Positions 46,589-54,153 of a stretch of 64,000 bases of DNA are shown piece after piece (positions within the stretch are counted from its first letter, which is position 1; each line of letters opens with the position of its first letter). Under the pieces are notes generated by a model, which did no database searches, had not been told where the DNA came from, and worked only from the letters and a program-made list of their open reading frames with translations. The stretch comes from Myxococcota bacterium (GTDB taxonomy: Bacteria; Myxococcota_A; UBA9160; UBA6930). The DNA is taken from assembly GCA_965223415.1 (NCBI GenBank), contig OZ245002.1, positions 416,001 to 480,000 of the forward strand, given 5' to 3'. Made by a program: the position numbers and the translations under genes.

Positions 46589-47809
46589 TCATGCGTTCCG
46601 AGCGGCATCCTCGGCGGCGCGCACGATCTCGGCGAGGGGCCGATCGGCCCGGCGCGCCGCGCGCTTGCAGTCGTCGTACTCGGCAGAGACCTGGGTGCTC
46701 CCGTCCGGCGCCGTCACGTACTTCACCCGGATGGAGCCGAAGGGCGTGTCCACGGAGCGCACCTCCCGGGGCAGGACCAGGCGATCGGCCTCCACGCTGC
46801 GCACCCCCAGGCTCCCGGTCACCGCGAGCAGGCGGCTCGCCAGCGGGACGCGGCGGGCGGGCGTGGTGAGCACCCGCAGCAGGAAGCCGGGCCGGTTCTT
46901 CTTCGTCTGCACGTACTGCAGGGAGACGTCCAGGGCGCCGGCGGCGAGGAGCTCGTCCATCACGTGATCGAAGTGCTCGGGCACGAGGTCGTCGAGGTTG
47001 GCTTCGAGGCACACCACCCGGTCCGCTCCGCCGCCGCTCTCGCGTCCGACGACGACGCGCAGCACGTTGGGCAGTGGCCCTTTGCGGTCGTTGCCCGCAC
47101 CGTGACCGATCGACTCGACGGTCATGGCGGGCAGGCCCGTGAACTCGTCCGCCAGCGTGCGCAGGATCGCGGCGCCGGTGGGCGTCACCGTCTCCCACCG
47201 AACGTGGGCCGGCACCGTCGGCACGCCCCGCAGCAGCTCGAAGGTCGCGGGGGCCGGGAGCGGCAGGCGGCCGTGCTCGGTCTCGACGGTGCCCTCGCCC
47301 AGGGCGACGGGCCCGACCGTAACCCGCTCGATCGCCATGGCGTGGACGGCGATCGCCGCGCCGGCGATGTCCACGATGGCGTCCACCGCGCCGACCTCGT
47401 GGAAGTGGACCTTCTCGACGGGAATGCCGTGCACCCGTGCCTCGGCCTCCGCCAAGGCCGCGAAGATCGCCTGGGCGCGGTCGCGCACGGCGGCCTCGAG
47501 CTTGGCCGCATCGAGGAGCCGGCGGATCGCGGCGTAGTGCCGGTGGTGGTGGTGACCGTGGCCGCCCTTCGCCCGGGGCTTCGGCACCTTCACGTCGACG
47601 TAGGGCGCCGCCAGGGCGCCGCGCTTCACCTTCTTCACGACCAGTCGGTGCGCGACGCCGAGCCCGGCGAGCCCTTCGCCGAGCTTCCGGCGCGGCAGCC
47701 CGGCATCGAGCATCGCGCCGAGGAACATGTTGCCGGCGGTCCCCGAGAAGGGGTCGAGATGGAGGACGCGCCGGCCCGCCACCGGTGCACCGGTCTTGCG
47801 CCGCGCCAC
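46589..47809 (-). CDS. larC: Nickel pincer cofactor biosynthesis protein LarC
   Basis: DPFSGTAGNMFLGAM, His-rich tract, VHFHEVGAVDAIVDI, TPTGAAIL, KKNRPG, EYDDC. Confidence 0.95.
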   Translation of the reverse strand: MARRKTGAPVAGRRVLHLDPFSGTAGNMFLGAMLDAGLPRRKLGEGLAGLGVAHRLVVKKVKRGALAAPYVDVKVPKPRAKGGHGHHHHRHYAAIRRLLDAAKLEAAVRDRAQAIFAALAEAEARVHGIPVEKVHFHEVGAVDAIVDIAGAAIAVHAMAIERVTVGPVALGEGTVETEHGRLPLPAPATFELLRGVPTVPAHVRWETVTPTGAAILRTLADEFTGLPAMTVESIGHGAGNDRKGPLPNVLRVVVGRESGGGADRVVCLEANLDDLVPEHFDHVMDELLAAGALDVSLQYVQTKKNRPGFLLRVLTTPARRVPLASRLLAVTGSLGVRSVEADRLVLPREVRSVDTPFGSIRVKYVTAPDGSTQVSAEYDDCKRAARRADRPLAEIVRAAEDAARNA

Positions 47810-47811
47810 GC

Positions 47812-48567
47812 TCAGAGCCGATTGATCAGGGTCGCCACCGTGGCGGCGCCGAAGCCGTTGTCGATGTTCACCACGGTCACGTTCGATGCGCAGCTGTTGA
47901 GCATCGCGAGCAGCGCGGCGATCCCACCGAAGGAGGCGCCATAGCCGACGCTCGTCGGCACGGCGATCACCGGCTTGTCGACCAGGCCACCGACCACCGA
48001 GGCGAGAGCGCCCTCCATGCCGGCGACGGCGACGACCACCCGTGCGCTGCGCAGAAGCCGGCTCTCGGCCAGGAGGCGGTGCAGCCCGGCCACGCCGACG
48101 TCGGCGAGGAGCTCCACCTTGTTGCCGAAGCGCCGGGCCACGCTGGCCGCCTCCCGCGCCACGGGCAGGTCAGAGGTGCCCGCACAGACCACGGCGATCG
48201 TGCCCTTGCCCTGGATCTCCACCTCGGCCGGGCCGTACCAGAGGAGCCGGGCGTCCGGGTCGTACTCGCCGCCGGGCAGGAGGGCGAGCACCTCCTCCGC
48301 CGCGTCGGGCTCGATGCGGGTGGCGAGCGCCGATTGGCCGGCCTGGGTGAGAGTGCGGGCGATCTCGGCGACCTCCGCGGCCCGCTTGCCCTGGCCGAAG
48401 ATCACCTCGGGCAGCCCCTGCCGCAGGGCCCGGTGCACGTCGACCCGCCCGGCCCCGGACGGCGTCTCGATGATCGGCGGGTGGGCGAGCGCCTCGAGGG
48501 CCTCGTCCGTGTCCAGCTCTCCGCGCCGAACCGCCTCGAGCAGGGCGCGCGCGCGTTCTCGCTCCAT
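47812..48567 (-). CDS. larB: Nickel pincer cofactor biosynthesis protein LarB
   Basis: GLPEVIFGQGK, AGTSDLPVA, DVGVAGLHRL, AGMEGAL, AVPTSVGYG, VNIDNGFGA. Confidence 0.96.
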   Translation of the reverse strand: MERERARALLEAVRRGELDTDEALEALAHPPIIETPSGAGRVDVHRALRQGLPEVIFGQGKRAAEVAEIARTLTQAGQSALATRIEPDAAEEVLALLPGGEYDPDARLLWYGPAEVEIQGKGTIAVVCAGTSDLPVAREAASVARRFGNKVELLADVGVAGLHRLLAESRLLRSARVVVAVAGMEGALASVVGGLVDKPVIAVPTSVGYGASFGGIAALLAMLNSCASNVTVVNIDNGFGAATVATLINRL

Positions 48568-48588
48568 CCAAGCAACGTTAGCCGAGAT

Positions 48589-48661
48589 GTGAGACAAGGG
48601 GACGTTCCTTTCTGTCTCACGGCTTTGCCGTGAGACAGAAAGGAACGTCCCCTTGTCTCAC
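48589..48661. repeat. REP-like palindromic doublet, copy 2
   Basis: Same 32-mer at 48589-48620, 9-nt spacer, reverse complement at 48630-48661. Confidence 0.9.
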
Positions 48662-49240
48662 TCAGTCGACGAGGCGGTCTGGCACGTAGACGAGCAGGCC
48701 GTGGATCTCGCCGTCTCGGTCGGCGATCTCGGTCTCGATGCGCAGGGCGGCCGGGGCGGCGTGGGGTGTGAGGCGCTCGGCCAGGACGGCGCCGGCGTCG
48801 CGGAGGACCAGGTCGGGCACCGAAGGCAGCACCACCGCGCCGGTGGTCTCGCCGATGGACGAGGCGACGTGGGAGACGAGGATGTTGCCCAGCTCGCGGA
48901 GCGCGGATTCGGCCATCTCCCGGTCGACGGGGCGCCCGCCGGTCAGCATGTCGACCAGCCGGTCGCGGACGTCGCCGGGGAAGATCAGGGCGAGGTAGCC
49001 ACCGGGCCCGCCGTGGAGCTCGAAGAAGACGCCCATGCGATCGGGGCCCTCGGCGTCCGCCACGATGAAGGGCTCGGCGAGACGCTGGGCAGTGAGGACC
49101 CGCACCGTCGGGACCCGCATGGAGCAGGGGCGTCCGGTCATCGCAGCGAGCGCGTTGGCGGCGTGGCCGGCGCCGATGCTGGTGAGCTCGCGGATGCGAT
49201 CCACCTGGGTCTCGTCGAGCTGCTGGGAGAGGTCGGTCAT
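48662..49240 (-). CDS. cheC: CheC-family phosphatase (DifG-like)
   Basis: RELTSIGAGHAANALAAMTG, SALRELGNIL, PSVP. Confidence 0.9.
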   Translation of the reverse strand: MTDLSQQLDETQVDRIRELTSIGAGHAANALAAMTGRPCSMRVPTVRVLTAQRLAEPFIVADAEGPDRMGVFFELHGGPGGYLALIFPGDVRDRLVDMLTGGRPVDREMAESALRELGNILVSHVASSIGETTGAVVLPSVPDLVLRDAGAVLAERLTPHAAPAALRIETEIADRDGEIHGLLVYVPDRLVD

Positions 49241-50909
49241 GCCAGCTGGTTCACGTCGAGGAGGAACACGGGACAGCCGTCGCCGAGGACCGTCAGGCCG
49301 GCGAGCAGACGCGCGCTGGCCAGGAGCCGCGGCACGGGCTTGACGTAGATCTCCTGCTGGCCGGCCAGGTGCCCGACGCGCAGGCCGACGCGTTCGCCCC
49401 GGACCTCGGCCAGCACGAGGGGGCTCGTGCCGCCGTCCTCCTCATGGGTCGGGAAGCCGATGCGGCGGGCGAGGTCGAGCACCAGCACCGGCTCGTCCTC
49501 CACCAGGCAGAACTGCTCGCTGCCGGCCACCTCGATGGCGTCGGCGGCGACCTCGACCACGCGCTCGACCTTCGCGATCGGCACCGCCACGGTCTGGCCG
49601 CCAGCGCCGACCAGCAGCACGCGCTGGACGGCGGCGGTAATCGGCACGACGAGGGCGGTCGTCGTGCCCAAGCCGGGGCGGGAGCGCAGCTCGACCCGTC
49701 CGCCGAGGGCCTCGATGGTCGCCTTCACCGCGTCCATGCCGACGCCGCGCCCGGACACCGTCGACACCTCGGCCGCGGTGCTGACCCCGGGCCGGAACAC
49801 GAGCGAGGCGATCTCGTCCGGCGGGAGATCGTCGGCCAGGTCCTCGTGGAGCACGCCGGCGTCGATCGCGCGGCGCTTCACCGAAGCGAGATCGATGCCG
49901 CGGCCGTCGTCCTCCACCGAGATCAGCACCTGGTCCTTCTCCCGCCGGGCCTCGACCACGACCCGGCCCGAGGGCGGCTTGCCCACCTCCCGGCGCGCCT
50001 CCGGCTCCTCGAGCCCGTGGTCGACGGCGTTGCGGACCAGGTGGACCAGGGGATCGCCGAGCCGATCGAGAATCGCCCGGTCCAGCTCGAGCTCGGCACC
50101 CCGGAGCTCGACGTCGACTTCCTTGCCGGTGGACCGCGCGATCTCCCGGGCCATGCGCGGCAGCGCATCCATCACGCGCAGGAGCGGAGCCGTGCGAAGC
50201 GAGAGGGCGCGGCGCTGGAGATCGCCGACCACCCGCTCCATGCGATCGAAGCCGGCGCCGAGGGTGGGGGCCATCGCCGAGTCGCCCGTACCCTCCGCCG
50301 TCGAACGCAGATGACTCGAGCTCAGGATCACCTCGCCCACAGAGGCGAGGAAGCGGTCCAGGGTCTCCGTGCGTACCCGGACCGAAGGCGGCGGCGCGCT
50401 CGAGATGACCGGGGTGGGTGCACCCGCCGCAGCTCCCGCCCCGGCCTCGGGCGCTACGACGTCGCCGCTTTTTTTGGGTCCGGCTCCGGCGGCAGCTCCG
50501 ATGCGGGAGCGATCTCCGATTCCTGCGCCGGGTCGACCGCCGCGCCGAGCCTGTCCAGGAGCTCCGGGTCGGGCGGAGAGGGCTCGCCCTGGGCGCGGAT
50601 CGCCCCGACCATCGCCTCGAGGCCCTCGAGACCCGCGAAGAGCAGCGCCGTGCCGGCCTCGCCCGCCGGCACGACACCGGCGGCGCGGAAGCGATCCATC
50701 ACGTCCTCGAGCTTGTGGGCGAGCTCGGTGATGGCGTCGTAGCCGAGGGATCCCGCCATGCCCTTGATGGAGTGGGCCATGCGGAACACCTCGTCGATCG
50801 CTTCGCCGTCGCCGGGCGCCTTCTCGAGGACGAGGAGCGCCCTGCTCATCTCGGCGAGATGATCCGTCGCCTCTTCGAGGAAGAGCGCCCGGTACTTGGC
50901 CAGGTCCAA
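49237..50909 (-). CDS. cheA: CheA histidine kinase (DifE-like), split across two frames joined by a -1 shift at 50469-50478
   Basis: Frame 0: Hpt domain (FLEEA..VFRMAHSIKGMAG..LAHKLED). -1 frame: dimerisation SVRV..LDR, HATPase HLVRNAVDHG / DDGRG / SGRGVGMD, then a CheW-like domain. Confidence 0.88.
50454..50909 (-). CDS. Stand-alone Hpt (CheA P1) product of the unshifted frame, 151 aa
   Basis: TTG start, HSIKG phosphoacceptor motif, TAG four codons after the AAA AAA run. Confidence 0.6.
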   Translation of the reverse strand: MDLAKYRALFLEEATDHLAEMSRALLVLEKAPGDGEAIDEVFRMAHSIKGMAGSLGYDAITELAHKLEDVMDRFRAAGVVPAGEAGTALLFAGLEGLEAMVGAIRAQGEPSPPDPELLDRLGAAVDPAQESEIAPASELPPEPDPKKAATS

Positions 50910-50948
50910 GGCTCAGCTCCCTTTGCCGTCCGTCTTGGGGCCCAAGGC

Positions 50949-51317
50949 CTAGCCTTCCTTCTCGAGCACCTTGGCGAGCGTCGTGAGCACGGCGTCGGGC
51001 TTGAAGGGCTTCACGATGAAGTCCTTGGCGCCGGCCTGGATCGCCTCCATGACCAAAGTCTCCTGCCCCAGCGCACTGCACATCACCACCGTGGCGCCGG
51101 GATCCTCTGCCTTGATGGCCTTCACCGCGTCGATGCCCGAGCGCTTGGGCATGACGATGTCCATCATGACCAGGTCGGGACGCAGCTCCAGGAACTTCTC
51201 CACGACTTCGACGCCGTCGGACGCTTCGCCCACCACCTCATAGCCTTCGGGCTCGATGATGTCGCGAATCATCTGCCGCATGAAGGACGCGTCGTCGGCA
51301 ACCAGAACCCTCTTCAT
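50949..51317 (-). CDS. cheY: CheY-like response regulator (DifD-like)
   Basis: VLVADDASFMR, PDLVMMDIVMP, MCSALGQ, GAKDFIVKPF. Confidence 0.95.
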   Translation of the reverse strand: MKRVLVADDASFMRQMIRDIIEPEGYEVVGEASDGVEVVEKFLELRPDLVMMDIVMPKRSGIDAVKAIKAEDPGATVVMCSALGQETLVMEAIQAGAKDFIVKPFKPDAVLTTLAKVLEKEG

Positions 51318-51814
51318 GTCGTTCCCCCGTGGGTTGGCTCGCTGGCGCCATTCGCCACCGAGTTCGAGATCACTTCCGCCGCCCGCTCGAGCAGGCGTTT
51401 CGGATCCAGCACGCTGACCATCCGCCCGTCGAGAGGGCGGCGCTCCGCCACCGGGTCCGCCTCCAGGGCGTGAGCCGGCGGCCCGTCGATCAGCCCCAGG
51501 ATGCGGTCCACCGGCACGCCGTAGCGGTCCGGGTCGTCCGGATCCTTGGCCAGGATCAGGAGCGGCCGTTCGATCGGGTAGCGCGAGCGATGCGCACCGA
51601 AGAGCGCGTCGCCGAAGACGATGGGCACGGCGTCGCCGTGGTGGTTCACGACGCCGCCCACCCGATGGTGCACCATCGGCACCGAGGCGAGCTGGTCGAG
51701 CTCGGCCACCTCGGCGACGTCGGCGATGGGCAGGGCGTAGAGGGCATCGCACAGCTCGAAGGCGAGCAGGCGCTCGCTGAGCTCCATGGGAGGGATCTGG
51801 GGGGGCGCGCTCAC
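51314..51814 (-). CDS. cheW: CheW-like adaptor (DifC-like)
   Basis: [42 protein letters not shown]. Confidence 0.88.
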
Positions 51815-53211: not shown

Positions 53212-54153
53212 TCAGAAGTGCTGCCAGCCGGCGCGTTCCGGGTCGGGCCCGCGGGCGCCGACGAGCTCGAGGCCCCCTCGGGCGAGGACGCCGACCGGCG
53301 TCAGCGGCTCGCTCGCCCGCATCTCCGGCGGCAGCACGACGGGAGCGGAACCCCGCACGCTGAACAGGAGTTCGTAGTCCTCCCCGCCCCCGAGCAGGAG
53401 CGATTCCGCATCCACGCCAGCGCCCTTGCAGGCCCGGTCGAATCCGGCCGGGCGCGGCAGCGCCCCGACGTCGAGACGGGCGCCGGCGTCGGAGGCCCGG
53501 CACAGATGGGCGAGGTCAGCGAGCACGCCGTCCGAGACGTCGATGCAGGCGCTGACGCGCCCGGTCCAGGCCAGCGCGCGGCCCAGGGCGATGCGCGGCA
53601 CCGGCACGTGCTGCACCCGGCCCTGCACGCGCTCGAGGGCCGACCGGCCGAGGGTGCCGGAGACGTAGAGGCGATCGCCGGGACGACCGCCGGCCCGCCG
53701 CAGGGCCCGGCCGCGGGTCACGGCGCCGAGGGCGGTGAGGTGGAGCTCGAGGCCAGGGCCCGCCGCGACGTTGCCGCCGACGAGCGGACAGGCGTGCTCG
53801 GCCGCCACCTCCAGGGCGCCGCCCACCAGGGCGAGCAGCACCTCGACCTCCCGCTCTGGGGCGGCCGATAGCGAGAGGGTGAAGCCGAGCGGCCTGGCCC
53901 CCATCGCCGCCAGGTCCGAGAGGGTCGCGGCCAGGGCCCGCCCCCCGGCCGTGGCCGGCGTCTCGTGGTCGAAGCGGAAGTGCACGCCTTCGACGAAGGC
54001 ATCGGCCGTGACCGCCACGTCCTCGCCGGTCCTGGCTCGAAGCAGCGCCGCATCGTCGCCGATGCCCAGGGCCACCCCGCCCCCGCGGACGCGCCGGGCC
54101 TCGCGCTCGATGCGCTCGATCAGCCCGAACTCTCCCAGCTCCCGCAGCTCCAC
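53212..54153 (-). CDS. thiL: Thiamine-monophosphate kinase
   Basis: GEFGLI, GIGDDAA, LSDLAAMGA, IDVSDG, GGEDYELLF, GWQHF. Confidence 0.95.
   Translation of the reverse strand: MELRELGEFGLIERIEREARRVRGGGVALGIGDDAALLRARTGEDVAVTADAFVEGVHFRFDHETPATAGGRALAATLSDLAAMGARPLGFTLSLSAAPEREVEVLLALVGGALEVAAEHACPLVGGNVAAGPGLELHLTALGAVTRGRALRRAGGRPGDRLYVSGTLGRSALERVQGRVQHVPVPRIALGRALAWTGRVSACIDVSDGVLADLAHLCRASDAGARLDVGALPRPAGFDRACKGAGVDAESLLLGGGEDYELLFSVRGSAPVVLPPEMRASEPLTPVGVLARGGLELVGARGPDPERAGWQHF

Follow-up and report, generated by a model that had tools for sequence, protein, structure and literature searches.

The stretch analysed here (the window) comprises 64,000 nucleotides of a Myxococcota bacterium genome (GenBank assembly GCA_965223415.1, contig OZ245002.1, positions 416,001 to 480,000 of the forward strand). 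Its minus strand carries a chemosensory operon in which cheA, the gene of the histidine kinase CheA, is written in two overlapping reading frames that meet at a run of seven A residues (A7). Programmed recoding of some kind at this run can be taken as almost certain from the comparison of related sequences presented below. The upstream open reading frame (ORF), taken as the 0 frame, encodes the histidine phosphotransfer domain P1 (Pfam Hpt, E 1.3e-19). The downstream ORF, in the -1 frame, matches H-kinase_dim, HATPase_c and CheW in Pfam, and the CheA domain order spans both frames. At the junction the minus strand reads ...CCG GAC CCA AAA AAA GCG GCG ACG TCG TAG in the 0 frame and CCC AAA AAA AGC GGC GAC... 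in the -1 frame, which stays open down to 49237. Translation of the 50909-50454 ORF ends in ...PPEPDPKKAATS*, the -1 frame is translated across the junction as ...PKKSGDVVAPEAG..., and the predicted transframe peptide is ...DPKKSGDVVAPEAG. At about 50470 the GC signal at third codon positions (GC3) leaves the Hpt frame for the -1 frame. P1 was aligned with the isolated CheA P1 domains 2ld6 and 1tqg, which have been solved on their own (E about 1e-16), and the AHSIKG/HSIKG histidine motif is retained in this alignment, which includes the Thermotoga maritima P1. No P2 domain was detected in cheA. P1 with its phospho-accepting His, P3, P4 and P5 follow one another in the order of a CheA within a che operon, and the two overlapping 0/-1 coding ORFs, each homologous to part of one protein, have the layout of a -1 frameshift cassette. 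The predicted products are 151 amino acids (aa) long without a shift and 557 aa long after a -1 slip. The preliminary description of the window had the Hpt frame ending soon after the A-run and the remainder of CheA in the -1 frame, with which the ORFs, the Pfam matches and the GC3 switch agree. It had also put the break within the P1 linker and the products at 151 and about 557 aa; the 0-frame ORF does consist of Hpt plus about 45 linker residues, the core begins in the -1 frame and the computed sizes are the same.

The A7 is the sole A/T run of at least 5 nt in the 64-kb window. Under dinucleotide shuffling an A7 is expected 0.06 times per window, and any A7 was found in 5 of 100 shuffles. 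Lysine codons in eight ORFs of the neighbourhood are AAG in 49 cases and AAA in 6, and of the six AAA, four belong to the run, which was counted in each of the two frames. It had been remarked earlier that the A7 was the longest A/T run and that Lys was nearly always AAG, and both remarks were correct. Two overlapping heptamers, A_AAA_AAA and C_CCA_AAA, are in X_XXY_YYZ phase at the junction. A_AAA_AAA is listed as a frameshift heptamer (PMC3711429). A search of Rfam over 49000-51500 (E <= 1) gave no known frameshift element and only a chance microRNA match. The promoter and terminator scan gave nothing on the minus strand near the junction.

Relatives were collected by scanning contigs of species-representative (one-per-species) genomes. 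This gave 117 confirmed relatives of the core, of which 80 were kept as loci L001-L080. All are metagenome-assembled genomes (MAGs). L001-L066 have 58-84% identity and are nearly all titled Myxococcota or Deltaproteobacteria MAGs, with a few other labels; L067-L080 are distant CheAs with 31-38% identity. Of the 66 closer loci, 61 have contigs that include the Hpt part, and in 58 of these 61 the core stands in the -1 frame with respect to Hpt. L050 and L057 are cut inside Hpt by contig ends, yet the run and a nearby stop are present. L003, L029 and L065 begin downstream of the junction and, being uninformative, were left out, so that 63 loci could be judged. The contig of L029 starts right after the expected run site (L029:1-10, ATCTAGAC...), as if the assembly had broken at the homopolymer. 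A -1 break in the same linker, at a run of A7 to A10, was found in 60 of the 63 informative loci, and the A-run is present in all 60 loci with the break. Junction counts are given below out of 59, i.e. the 58 read-through loci and the window; L051 is among the 58 after allowing for its second break. An extra frame break inside the core is seen in L051 (4363-4368) and in L021 (about 5056) and may be due to assembly error or decay.

The run is A7 at 34 junctions, A8 at nine, A9 at eight and A10 at eight, and an independent pattern search agrees. A_AAA_AAA is in phase at every junction (59/59), and the run ends on a 0-frame codon boundary in 58 of them, the exception being L010 (CCA AAA AAA ATC). 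When run lengths were placed on the tree, the run had changed length 12 times on its 5' side and once on its 3' side, and the base that follows it varies (G 47, T 8, C 3, A 1). The 0-frame stop is 2-63 nt past the run at all 59 junctions, most commonly after three sense codons. The core reads without stops in the -1 frame among relatives at 58-84% identity. In L010 and L015 both frames are open over only 19 nt, and that overlap holds the run. Beyond the junctions, only two other A/T runs of at least 7 nt exist in 540,165 bases of related loci: L045:2519-2525, in frame near the end of the gene of the methyl-accepting chemotaxis protein (MCP; ..TKKM..), where no frame is broken, and L044:9079-9085. 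The preliminary description had proposed that orthologues be searched for a conserved frame break and a conserved slippery motif, and both were found. Its two overlapping heptamers fared differently. A_AAA_AAA is kept throughout, whereas the four bases ending at its first A are CCCA at 10 of the 59 junctions; C_CCA_AAA was ruled out as a conserved shift site.

In the tree, the core proteins fall into one clade (support 99), which is much diverged and has long internal branches. L016, L038 and L066 are in frame and have no run. They are nested separately inside the frameshifted clade, which needs three changes, and for this reason they have the appearance of secondary fusions. A finding that would speak against a programmed shift had been named beforehand, namely relatives in which cheA is uninterrupted and the A-run is absent. 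Such relatives do exist, but they are only three of 63, and each is nested singly. Distant CheAs in which the Hpt part was found are all in frame. Judged from its spread over 60 species-level genomes and hundreds of environmental ORFs, the break is ancient. Three independent fusions indicate that the fused form is viable, and since the break is retained in 60 of 63 loci, the state with two products seems to be favoured.

Stand-alone Hpt ORFs (83-265 aa, E <= 1e-10) form 659 clusters in a large protein collection. Among the best 120 of these 659, 118 have KK(K), which is at most 25 residues from the end in 111. After clustering at 50%, the best 150 include 31 short representatives, and 18 of these close with KK(K) followed by a short tail. 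Where a source gives the stand-alone ORFs a name, it is 'Hpt domain-containing protein' or CheA. Longer proteins gave 103 matches, of which 72 are fused CheAs (509-574 aa; Hpt identity 45-77%). The linker has no KK in 35 of the 72. The other 37, known as protein only, have KK or KKK at the same linker spot (KKK in 34 of them; among P0123-P0197). The linker of one fused CheA, AAKKKSPQ, resembles the transframe product of an A9/A10 locus. The KK/KKK of these fused proteins may stem from long runs that are in frame or from miscalled homopolymers. In a large subgroup that includes L005:3987-4040, L007:3987-4040 and the stand-alone Hpt ORFs P0012-P0059, KK is followed in the 0 frame by a common tail of 13 residues (FPRRSLTPRRRGV and variants). 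The hairpin that encodes this tail in L005 and L007 is unusually strong (z -3.5 and -4.3), and the tail may be kept through RNA structure or through the -1 frame.

Start codons for the core were sought in the -1 frame. Between the run and P3, no ATG, GTG or TTG is present at 25 of the 59 junctions, window included, and at 19 of the 59 none is present anywhere in the -1 ORF before P3. For the window this upholds the earlier claim that no usable start precedes the dimerisation domain. At the remaining 34 junctions some GTG, ATG or TTG lies between the run and P3, at a position that is not fixed. A conserved start codon of its own, as the core of a split kinase would have, was not found.

Two candidate stimulators had been described, a GGAG 8 nt upstream of the run and a hairpin after an 8-nt spacer. 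Both are present in the window. RNAalifold, applied to the window together with L001, L043 and L002, recovered the hairpin in its consensus, with 94% of cells paired over the four sequences. More generally, the 45 nt starting 3 nt past the run have a median at the 5.7th stability percentile of same-locus windows; 46% are in the top 5%, and the window is at the 5th percentile. Set against the upstream linker, which is just as GC-rich, this stretch is the more stable at 48 of the 59 junctions, and against the next 45 nt at 44, with mean folding energies of -21.7 (after the run), -17.7 (upstream linker) and -17.1 kcal/mol (next 45 nt). In a 15-genome A7 clade, a 9-bp stem (GCCCGNNGC/GCNNCGGGC) is 98.5% paired and contains two covarying pairs (8 cells). 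It was reached by 0 of 500 shuffles, and slid controls were 33-56% paired. A scan for the best closed hairpin, made for fixing the spacer, gave scattered start points and was not useful for this. Pairing like that of a Shine-Dalgarno (SD) sequence is in the top 10% of control windows at 36% of the junctions, all A7 or A8. When junctions were sorted by run length, the hairpin was in the top 10% in 27/34 (A7), 5/9 (A8), 3/8 (A9) and 1/8 (A10), and the SD-like pairing in 15/34, 6/9, 0/8 and 0/8, respectively. Compared with the A7 loci, the A10 loci L019, L020, L024, L039, L042, L059 and L064 have a weaker hairpin and weaker SD-like pairing, which hints at a change of mechanism in one orthologous family.

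The programmed -1 frameshift proposed in the preliminary description is thus supported by the conserved break, the conserved heptamer and the excess of structure downstream. The statement as a whole, namely that programmed -1 recoding gives a free P1 and a 557-aa CheA and takes place mainly on the ribosome in this window, was judged probable, with considerable room for doubt. The ribosomal slip, the two products and their ratio are what we infer from these data. The ribosomal route is favoured because the codon phase is fixed and the run has grown on its 5' side, polymerase slippage being indifferent to phase. Several observations weigh against it. Phase conservation could partly reflect shared ancestry. 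The hairpin of the window has no usable covariation (244 of 500 shuffles score as high, four sequences offering too little variation). Folded alone, the window gave z -0.34, 67 of 200 dinucleotide shuffles folded as well, and the minimum free energy structure differs from the proposed hairpin. The search for a covarying hairpin that the preliminary description had proposed thus gave enrichment of structure downstream and compensatory changes in the 15-genome clade, while the window hairpin is conserved among its four sequences but does not covary. The pairing of GGAG with the anti-SD sequence is ordinary (35th percentile of control windows), so that this element is present but not distinctive. 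Over all loci, the downstream 75 nt have a mean z of only -0.57 against mononucleotide shuffles, and part of the downstream stability is therefore due to composition. The usual spacing between heptamer and structure is 5-9 nt; the covarying stem begins 13 nt past the run, and the onset of structure varies, the best closed structures beginning 0-18 nt past it. In dnaX the SD spacing is longer than about 6 nt, the distance at which SD-like elements precede the heptamer in many loci. The rows of the stability test are related, and loci were treated as independent except where the tree was used, so that the Wilcoxon and Kolmogorov-Smirnov values make the evidence look stronger than it is. The relation between run length and stimulators rests on five independent pairs and is not significant. 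The fused CheAs with KK or KKK at the same linker spot count on the same side, as do the 16 of 59 junctions with A9 or A10, lengths with documented RNA-polymerase slippage (PMC1088944).

Assembly error, pseudogene, phase variation and independent initiation were each rejected as a general explanation. A homopolymer miscall (true A8) or a cheA pseudogene is scarcely credible. Homopolymers are error-prone in some sequencing chemistries and further frame breaks exist in the core of L051 and L021, but the same break is found in 60 genome records with differing contig-name styles and the core has been kept open over a deep clade. Moreover, the A8, A9 and A10 loci are also -1, and one missing base therefore cannot be the common cause. 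Very little credence was given to phase variation, in which the run would alter in length during DNA replication and cheA would be switched on and off in the population. Homopolymers are well known as contingency sites (PMC3711429), and the 37 of 72 fused relatives with a KK/KKK linker would fit, at the protein level. None of the 60 run-bearing species genomes is in the ON frame, however, despite lengths of 7, 8, 9 and 10. Each change in length occurred by substitution with the -1 relation kept, and the three in-frame genomes have no run. A split gene, with P1 and the core as separate proteins and the core started alone by re-initiation or coupling near the P1 stop, like CheA3/CheA4 of Rhodobacter sphaeroides, is highly improbable. 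Split kinases exist and are functional (PMC3591291), P3P4P5 phosphorylates isolated P1 in trans (PMC6044545) and some start codon lies between run and P3 at 34 of the 59 junctions. These starts have no fixed position, however, and the window is among the junctions that lack one. A split gene would also leave unexplained an in-phase A7-A10 run in GC-rich DNA nearly free of such runs.

Transcriptional slippage at the run was considered unlikely as the main explanation, though it is a serious alternative. RNA polymerase would add one A, some mRNAs would have A8 and encode full-length CheA, ribosomes would not shift and the same proteins would be made. The eight A9 and eight A10 junctions, at which the hairpin and SD-like signals fade, are in favour of it, and the 34 fused relatives with KKK in the linker hint at length variation at the polymerase level in long-run lineages. 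It needs no phase, and yet the run ends on the 0-frame boundary at 58 of 59 junctions and its length changes are 12 against one. Known slippage-stimulating hairpins sit upstream of the run, and the excess of structure downstream is not expected under slippage. Run length bears on both sides. Many genomes show selection against A/T runs of 9 nt, Thermus thermophilus dnaX has A9, and A8 seems productive in some insertion sequence (IS) elements (PMC1088944); the dnaX genes with A7-A8 may also realign, according to the authors of PMC3711429, which also counts against a purely ribosomal route. By contrast, 34 of the 59 junctions, including the window, have only A7, below the productive lengths named in the available text of these two sources. 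The length of about 8-9 or more taken to mark slippage is not reached in the window, but thresholds differ between organisms and this is weak evidence. IS clusters with A_AAA_AAA are called cases of proven stem-loop-stimulated -1 frameshifting (PMC4066793). In reporter assays, Mg-chelatase cassettes gave 10% frameshifting with A7, 40% with A9 and 63% with A11, the two routes not being separated (PMC3711429).

The features of the locus are collected in Table 1. The operon begins with the MCP gene and continues through CheW, a CheY-like receiver and cheA to a CheC/CheX-like phosphatase, an order which we take to resemble that of the Myxococcus dif cluster. The order MCP-CheW-CheY-Hpt-core-CheC is found in 58 of the 66 closer relatives; the other eight miss at least one gene, six of them being visibly cut by a contig end. 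The ORF finder extends the CheY-like gene to 51752, and its receiver domain begins at the Met of MKRVLVADD. The stop of cheA and the start of cheC overlap as ATGA (49237-49240, minus strand), and CheC translation is therefore probably coupled to shifted ribosomes. According to the ORF coordinates, similar 4-nt overlaps exist at MCP/CheW (51811-51814) and CheW/CheY (51314-51317). Five G7/C7 runs are present in the window (14867, 17649, 24694, 51799 and 60273); that at 51799-51805 is just within the start of the CheW ORF, beside the MCP/CheW overlap. Downstream of the operon are LarC-like (nickel insertion) and LarB-like (AIR carboxylase) ORFs, and upstream of it is an ORF with an AIRS domain (46589-48597 and 53212-54153, minus strand).

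Table 1 Features of the cheA junction and of the surrounding operon (window coordinates)
Feature	Position	Strand	Remarks
MCP gene, first of operon	53112-51811	minus	Pfam MCPsignal
CheW gene	51814-51314	minus	Pfam CheW; synteny
CheY-like receiver gene	51317-50949	minus	Pfam Response_reg; translation
Hpt ORF (CheA P1 and about 45 linker residues)	50909-50454	minus	0 frame, 151 aa, TTG start, C-terminus DPKKAATS*
GGAG, possible SD-like stimulator	50487-50484	minus	8 nt upstream of run
Second overlapping heptamer C_CCA_AAA	50472-50478	minus	in phase in window
A7 run, proposed shift site, in-phase A_AAA_AAA	50475-50469	minus	T7 on plus strand
Kinase-core ORF (remaining linker, then P3 dimerisation, P4 ATPase, P5 CheW-like)	50475-49237	minus	-1 frame, 412 codons from run
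Candidate 3' stem-loop	50426-50460	minus	8 nt after run; outer stem 50460-50453/50433-50426, inner stem 50451-50448/50438-50435
0-frame stop TAG	50454-50456	minus	12 nt after run; inside 5' arm of proposed hairpin
CheC/CheX-like phosphatase gene	49240-48662	minus	Pfam CheC and CheX

Under the favoured reading, ribosomes that stay in frame would terminate four codons after the run and release a free 151-aa P1 (Hpt) carrying the phospho-accepting His. Other ribosomes would slip by -1 on A_AAA_AAA, the tRNAs on AAA in the P site and AAA in the A site re-pairing with AAA AAA, and would go on to make the 557-aa P1-P3-P4-P5 kinase. At A7 loci like the window the slip would be mainly ribosomal, with help from RNA structure in the 45 nt that follow and, for some lineages, from a G-rich SD-like element upstream. 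Both aids weaken in the A9/A10 lineages, where slippage by RNA polymerase probably adds to ribosomal shifting or replaces it. The translation of CheC probably also draws on shifted ribosomes, and the shift would limit it through ATGA. The shift would set the ratio between a diffusible phosphocarrier or sink and a tethered kinase. We infer that free P1 would be a trans substrate of the core and a phosphate carrier or sink towards CheY. An article by Garzon and Parkinson (1996) reportedly concerns, by its title, chemotactic signalling by liberated P1. In receptor complexes, P3P4P5 accepts isolated P1 as its substrate (PMC6044545), and modelling of the split kinase CheA3/CheA4 predicts ultrasensitivity and bistability (PMC3591291).

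Features of this kind are known from other systems. In IS3-family OrfA/OrfAB and in retroviral gag/gag-pol, as proposed for cheA, a short product is made by default and a fusion by a -1 slip on an A-rich heptamer, often with a 3' stem-loop; cheA differs in being the gene of a chromosomal signalling kinase and not part of a mobile element or virus, and in having a phosphotransfer domain and a whole kinase as its products. Escherichia coli dnaX makes tau and gamma by -1 programmed ribosomal frameshifting at A_AAA_AAG, flanked by an SD-like element on the 5' side and a hairpin on the 3' side. As proposed for cheA, it is a cellular gene with two functional products in a set ratio; it likewise has a Lys-Lys heptamer, and its SD-like and 3' structural elements have candidate counterparts in cheA. 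In dnaX, however, the shift leads to the short product, whereas in cheA it would lead to the long one, and the cheA heptamer ends in A instead of G. In addition, the cheA stimulators are heterogeneous among lineages, and those of the window are not individually significant. E. coli copA, which yields CopA(Z), shifts by -1 at C_CCA_AAG. An N-terminal domain is freed there beside the full-length enzyme, and the window also has an in-phase C_CCA_AAA, but the short protein of copA results from the shift and C_CCA_AAA is not conserved in cheA (10/59). E. coli cheA itself gives two products, CheA-L and CheA-S, from two starts. As proposed here, one cheA gives two proteins that differ in the linkage of P1 to the core; the second product of E. 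coli arises by internal initiation and is a core that lacks a complete P1, whereas here it would be a P1 without the core, made by termination when no shift occurs.

Other comparisons come from published surveys and experiments. T. thermophilus dnaX, with transcriptional slippage at A9 (PMC1088944), also has an A-run in a cellular gene with two products, and the A9/A10 members of the cheA family are similar to it. There, however, the templated length gives the full-length protein, whereas most cheA members have A7 and their phase is fixed. In the Mg-chelatase clusters, an A7-A11 run is found at a conserved frame break of a non-mobile gene across taxa, and efficiency rises with length (PMC3711429); these clusters belong to another protein family and to other phyla. 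In R. sphaeroides CheA3/CheA4, P1 and the ATP-binding core are on separate polypeptides and phosphorylation occurs in trans (PMC3591291). The difference is that CheA3 and CheA4 are two genes with their own starts, while the present core lacks a conserved start and is proposed to exist in a tethered form as well. A predicted +1 frameshift hot spot in E. coli cheA, obtained with FSscan, was tested with a reporter (PMC2790909). It is a +1 site in an uninterrupted gene, with no second ORF, no A-run and no claim of conservation. Full-text literature searches gave no description of -1 recoding of cheA, and PMC2790909 was the sole link between cheA and frameshifting that they found; the preliminary description had likewise known of no described recoding in cheA. 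The terms cheA, chemotaxis and histidine kinase are absent from the main text of the GeneTack survey (PMC3711429), whose supplementary cluster tables may list them.

By its layout, cheA belongs with the standard A-run recoding cassettes; both the gene family and the kind of output are new. Few ordinary chromosomal genes of bacteria are known to hold a conserved programmed frameshift, among them dnaX, copA and the Mg-chelatase gene, and each showed how a protein ratio is fixed. If true, the present case would be the first in a two-component or chemosensory kinase. Its output would be biochemically meaningful, as the CheA core phosphorylates free P1 in trans and models of split kinases predict ultrasensitive or bistable signalling. 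There would also be a consequence for annotation, the full-length kinase being overlooked when the ORFs are named as an Hpt protein or CheA. The range of run lengths with fading stimulators offers a natural series on the replacement of ribosomal by transcriptional slippage. For a large uncultured myxobacterial clade, it is tentatively proposed that cheA encodes a partly split kinase, in which the P1 phosphocarrier would be in fixed excess over the tethered P1-core and the synthesis of both kinase and CheC would depend on the shift. The ratio may have been tuned by run length (A7-A10) and by the gain and loss of stimulators, and the mechanism may have moved between ribosomal slippage (A7/A8, where the hairpin and SD-like element are present) and polymerase slippage (A9/A10, where they are not).

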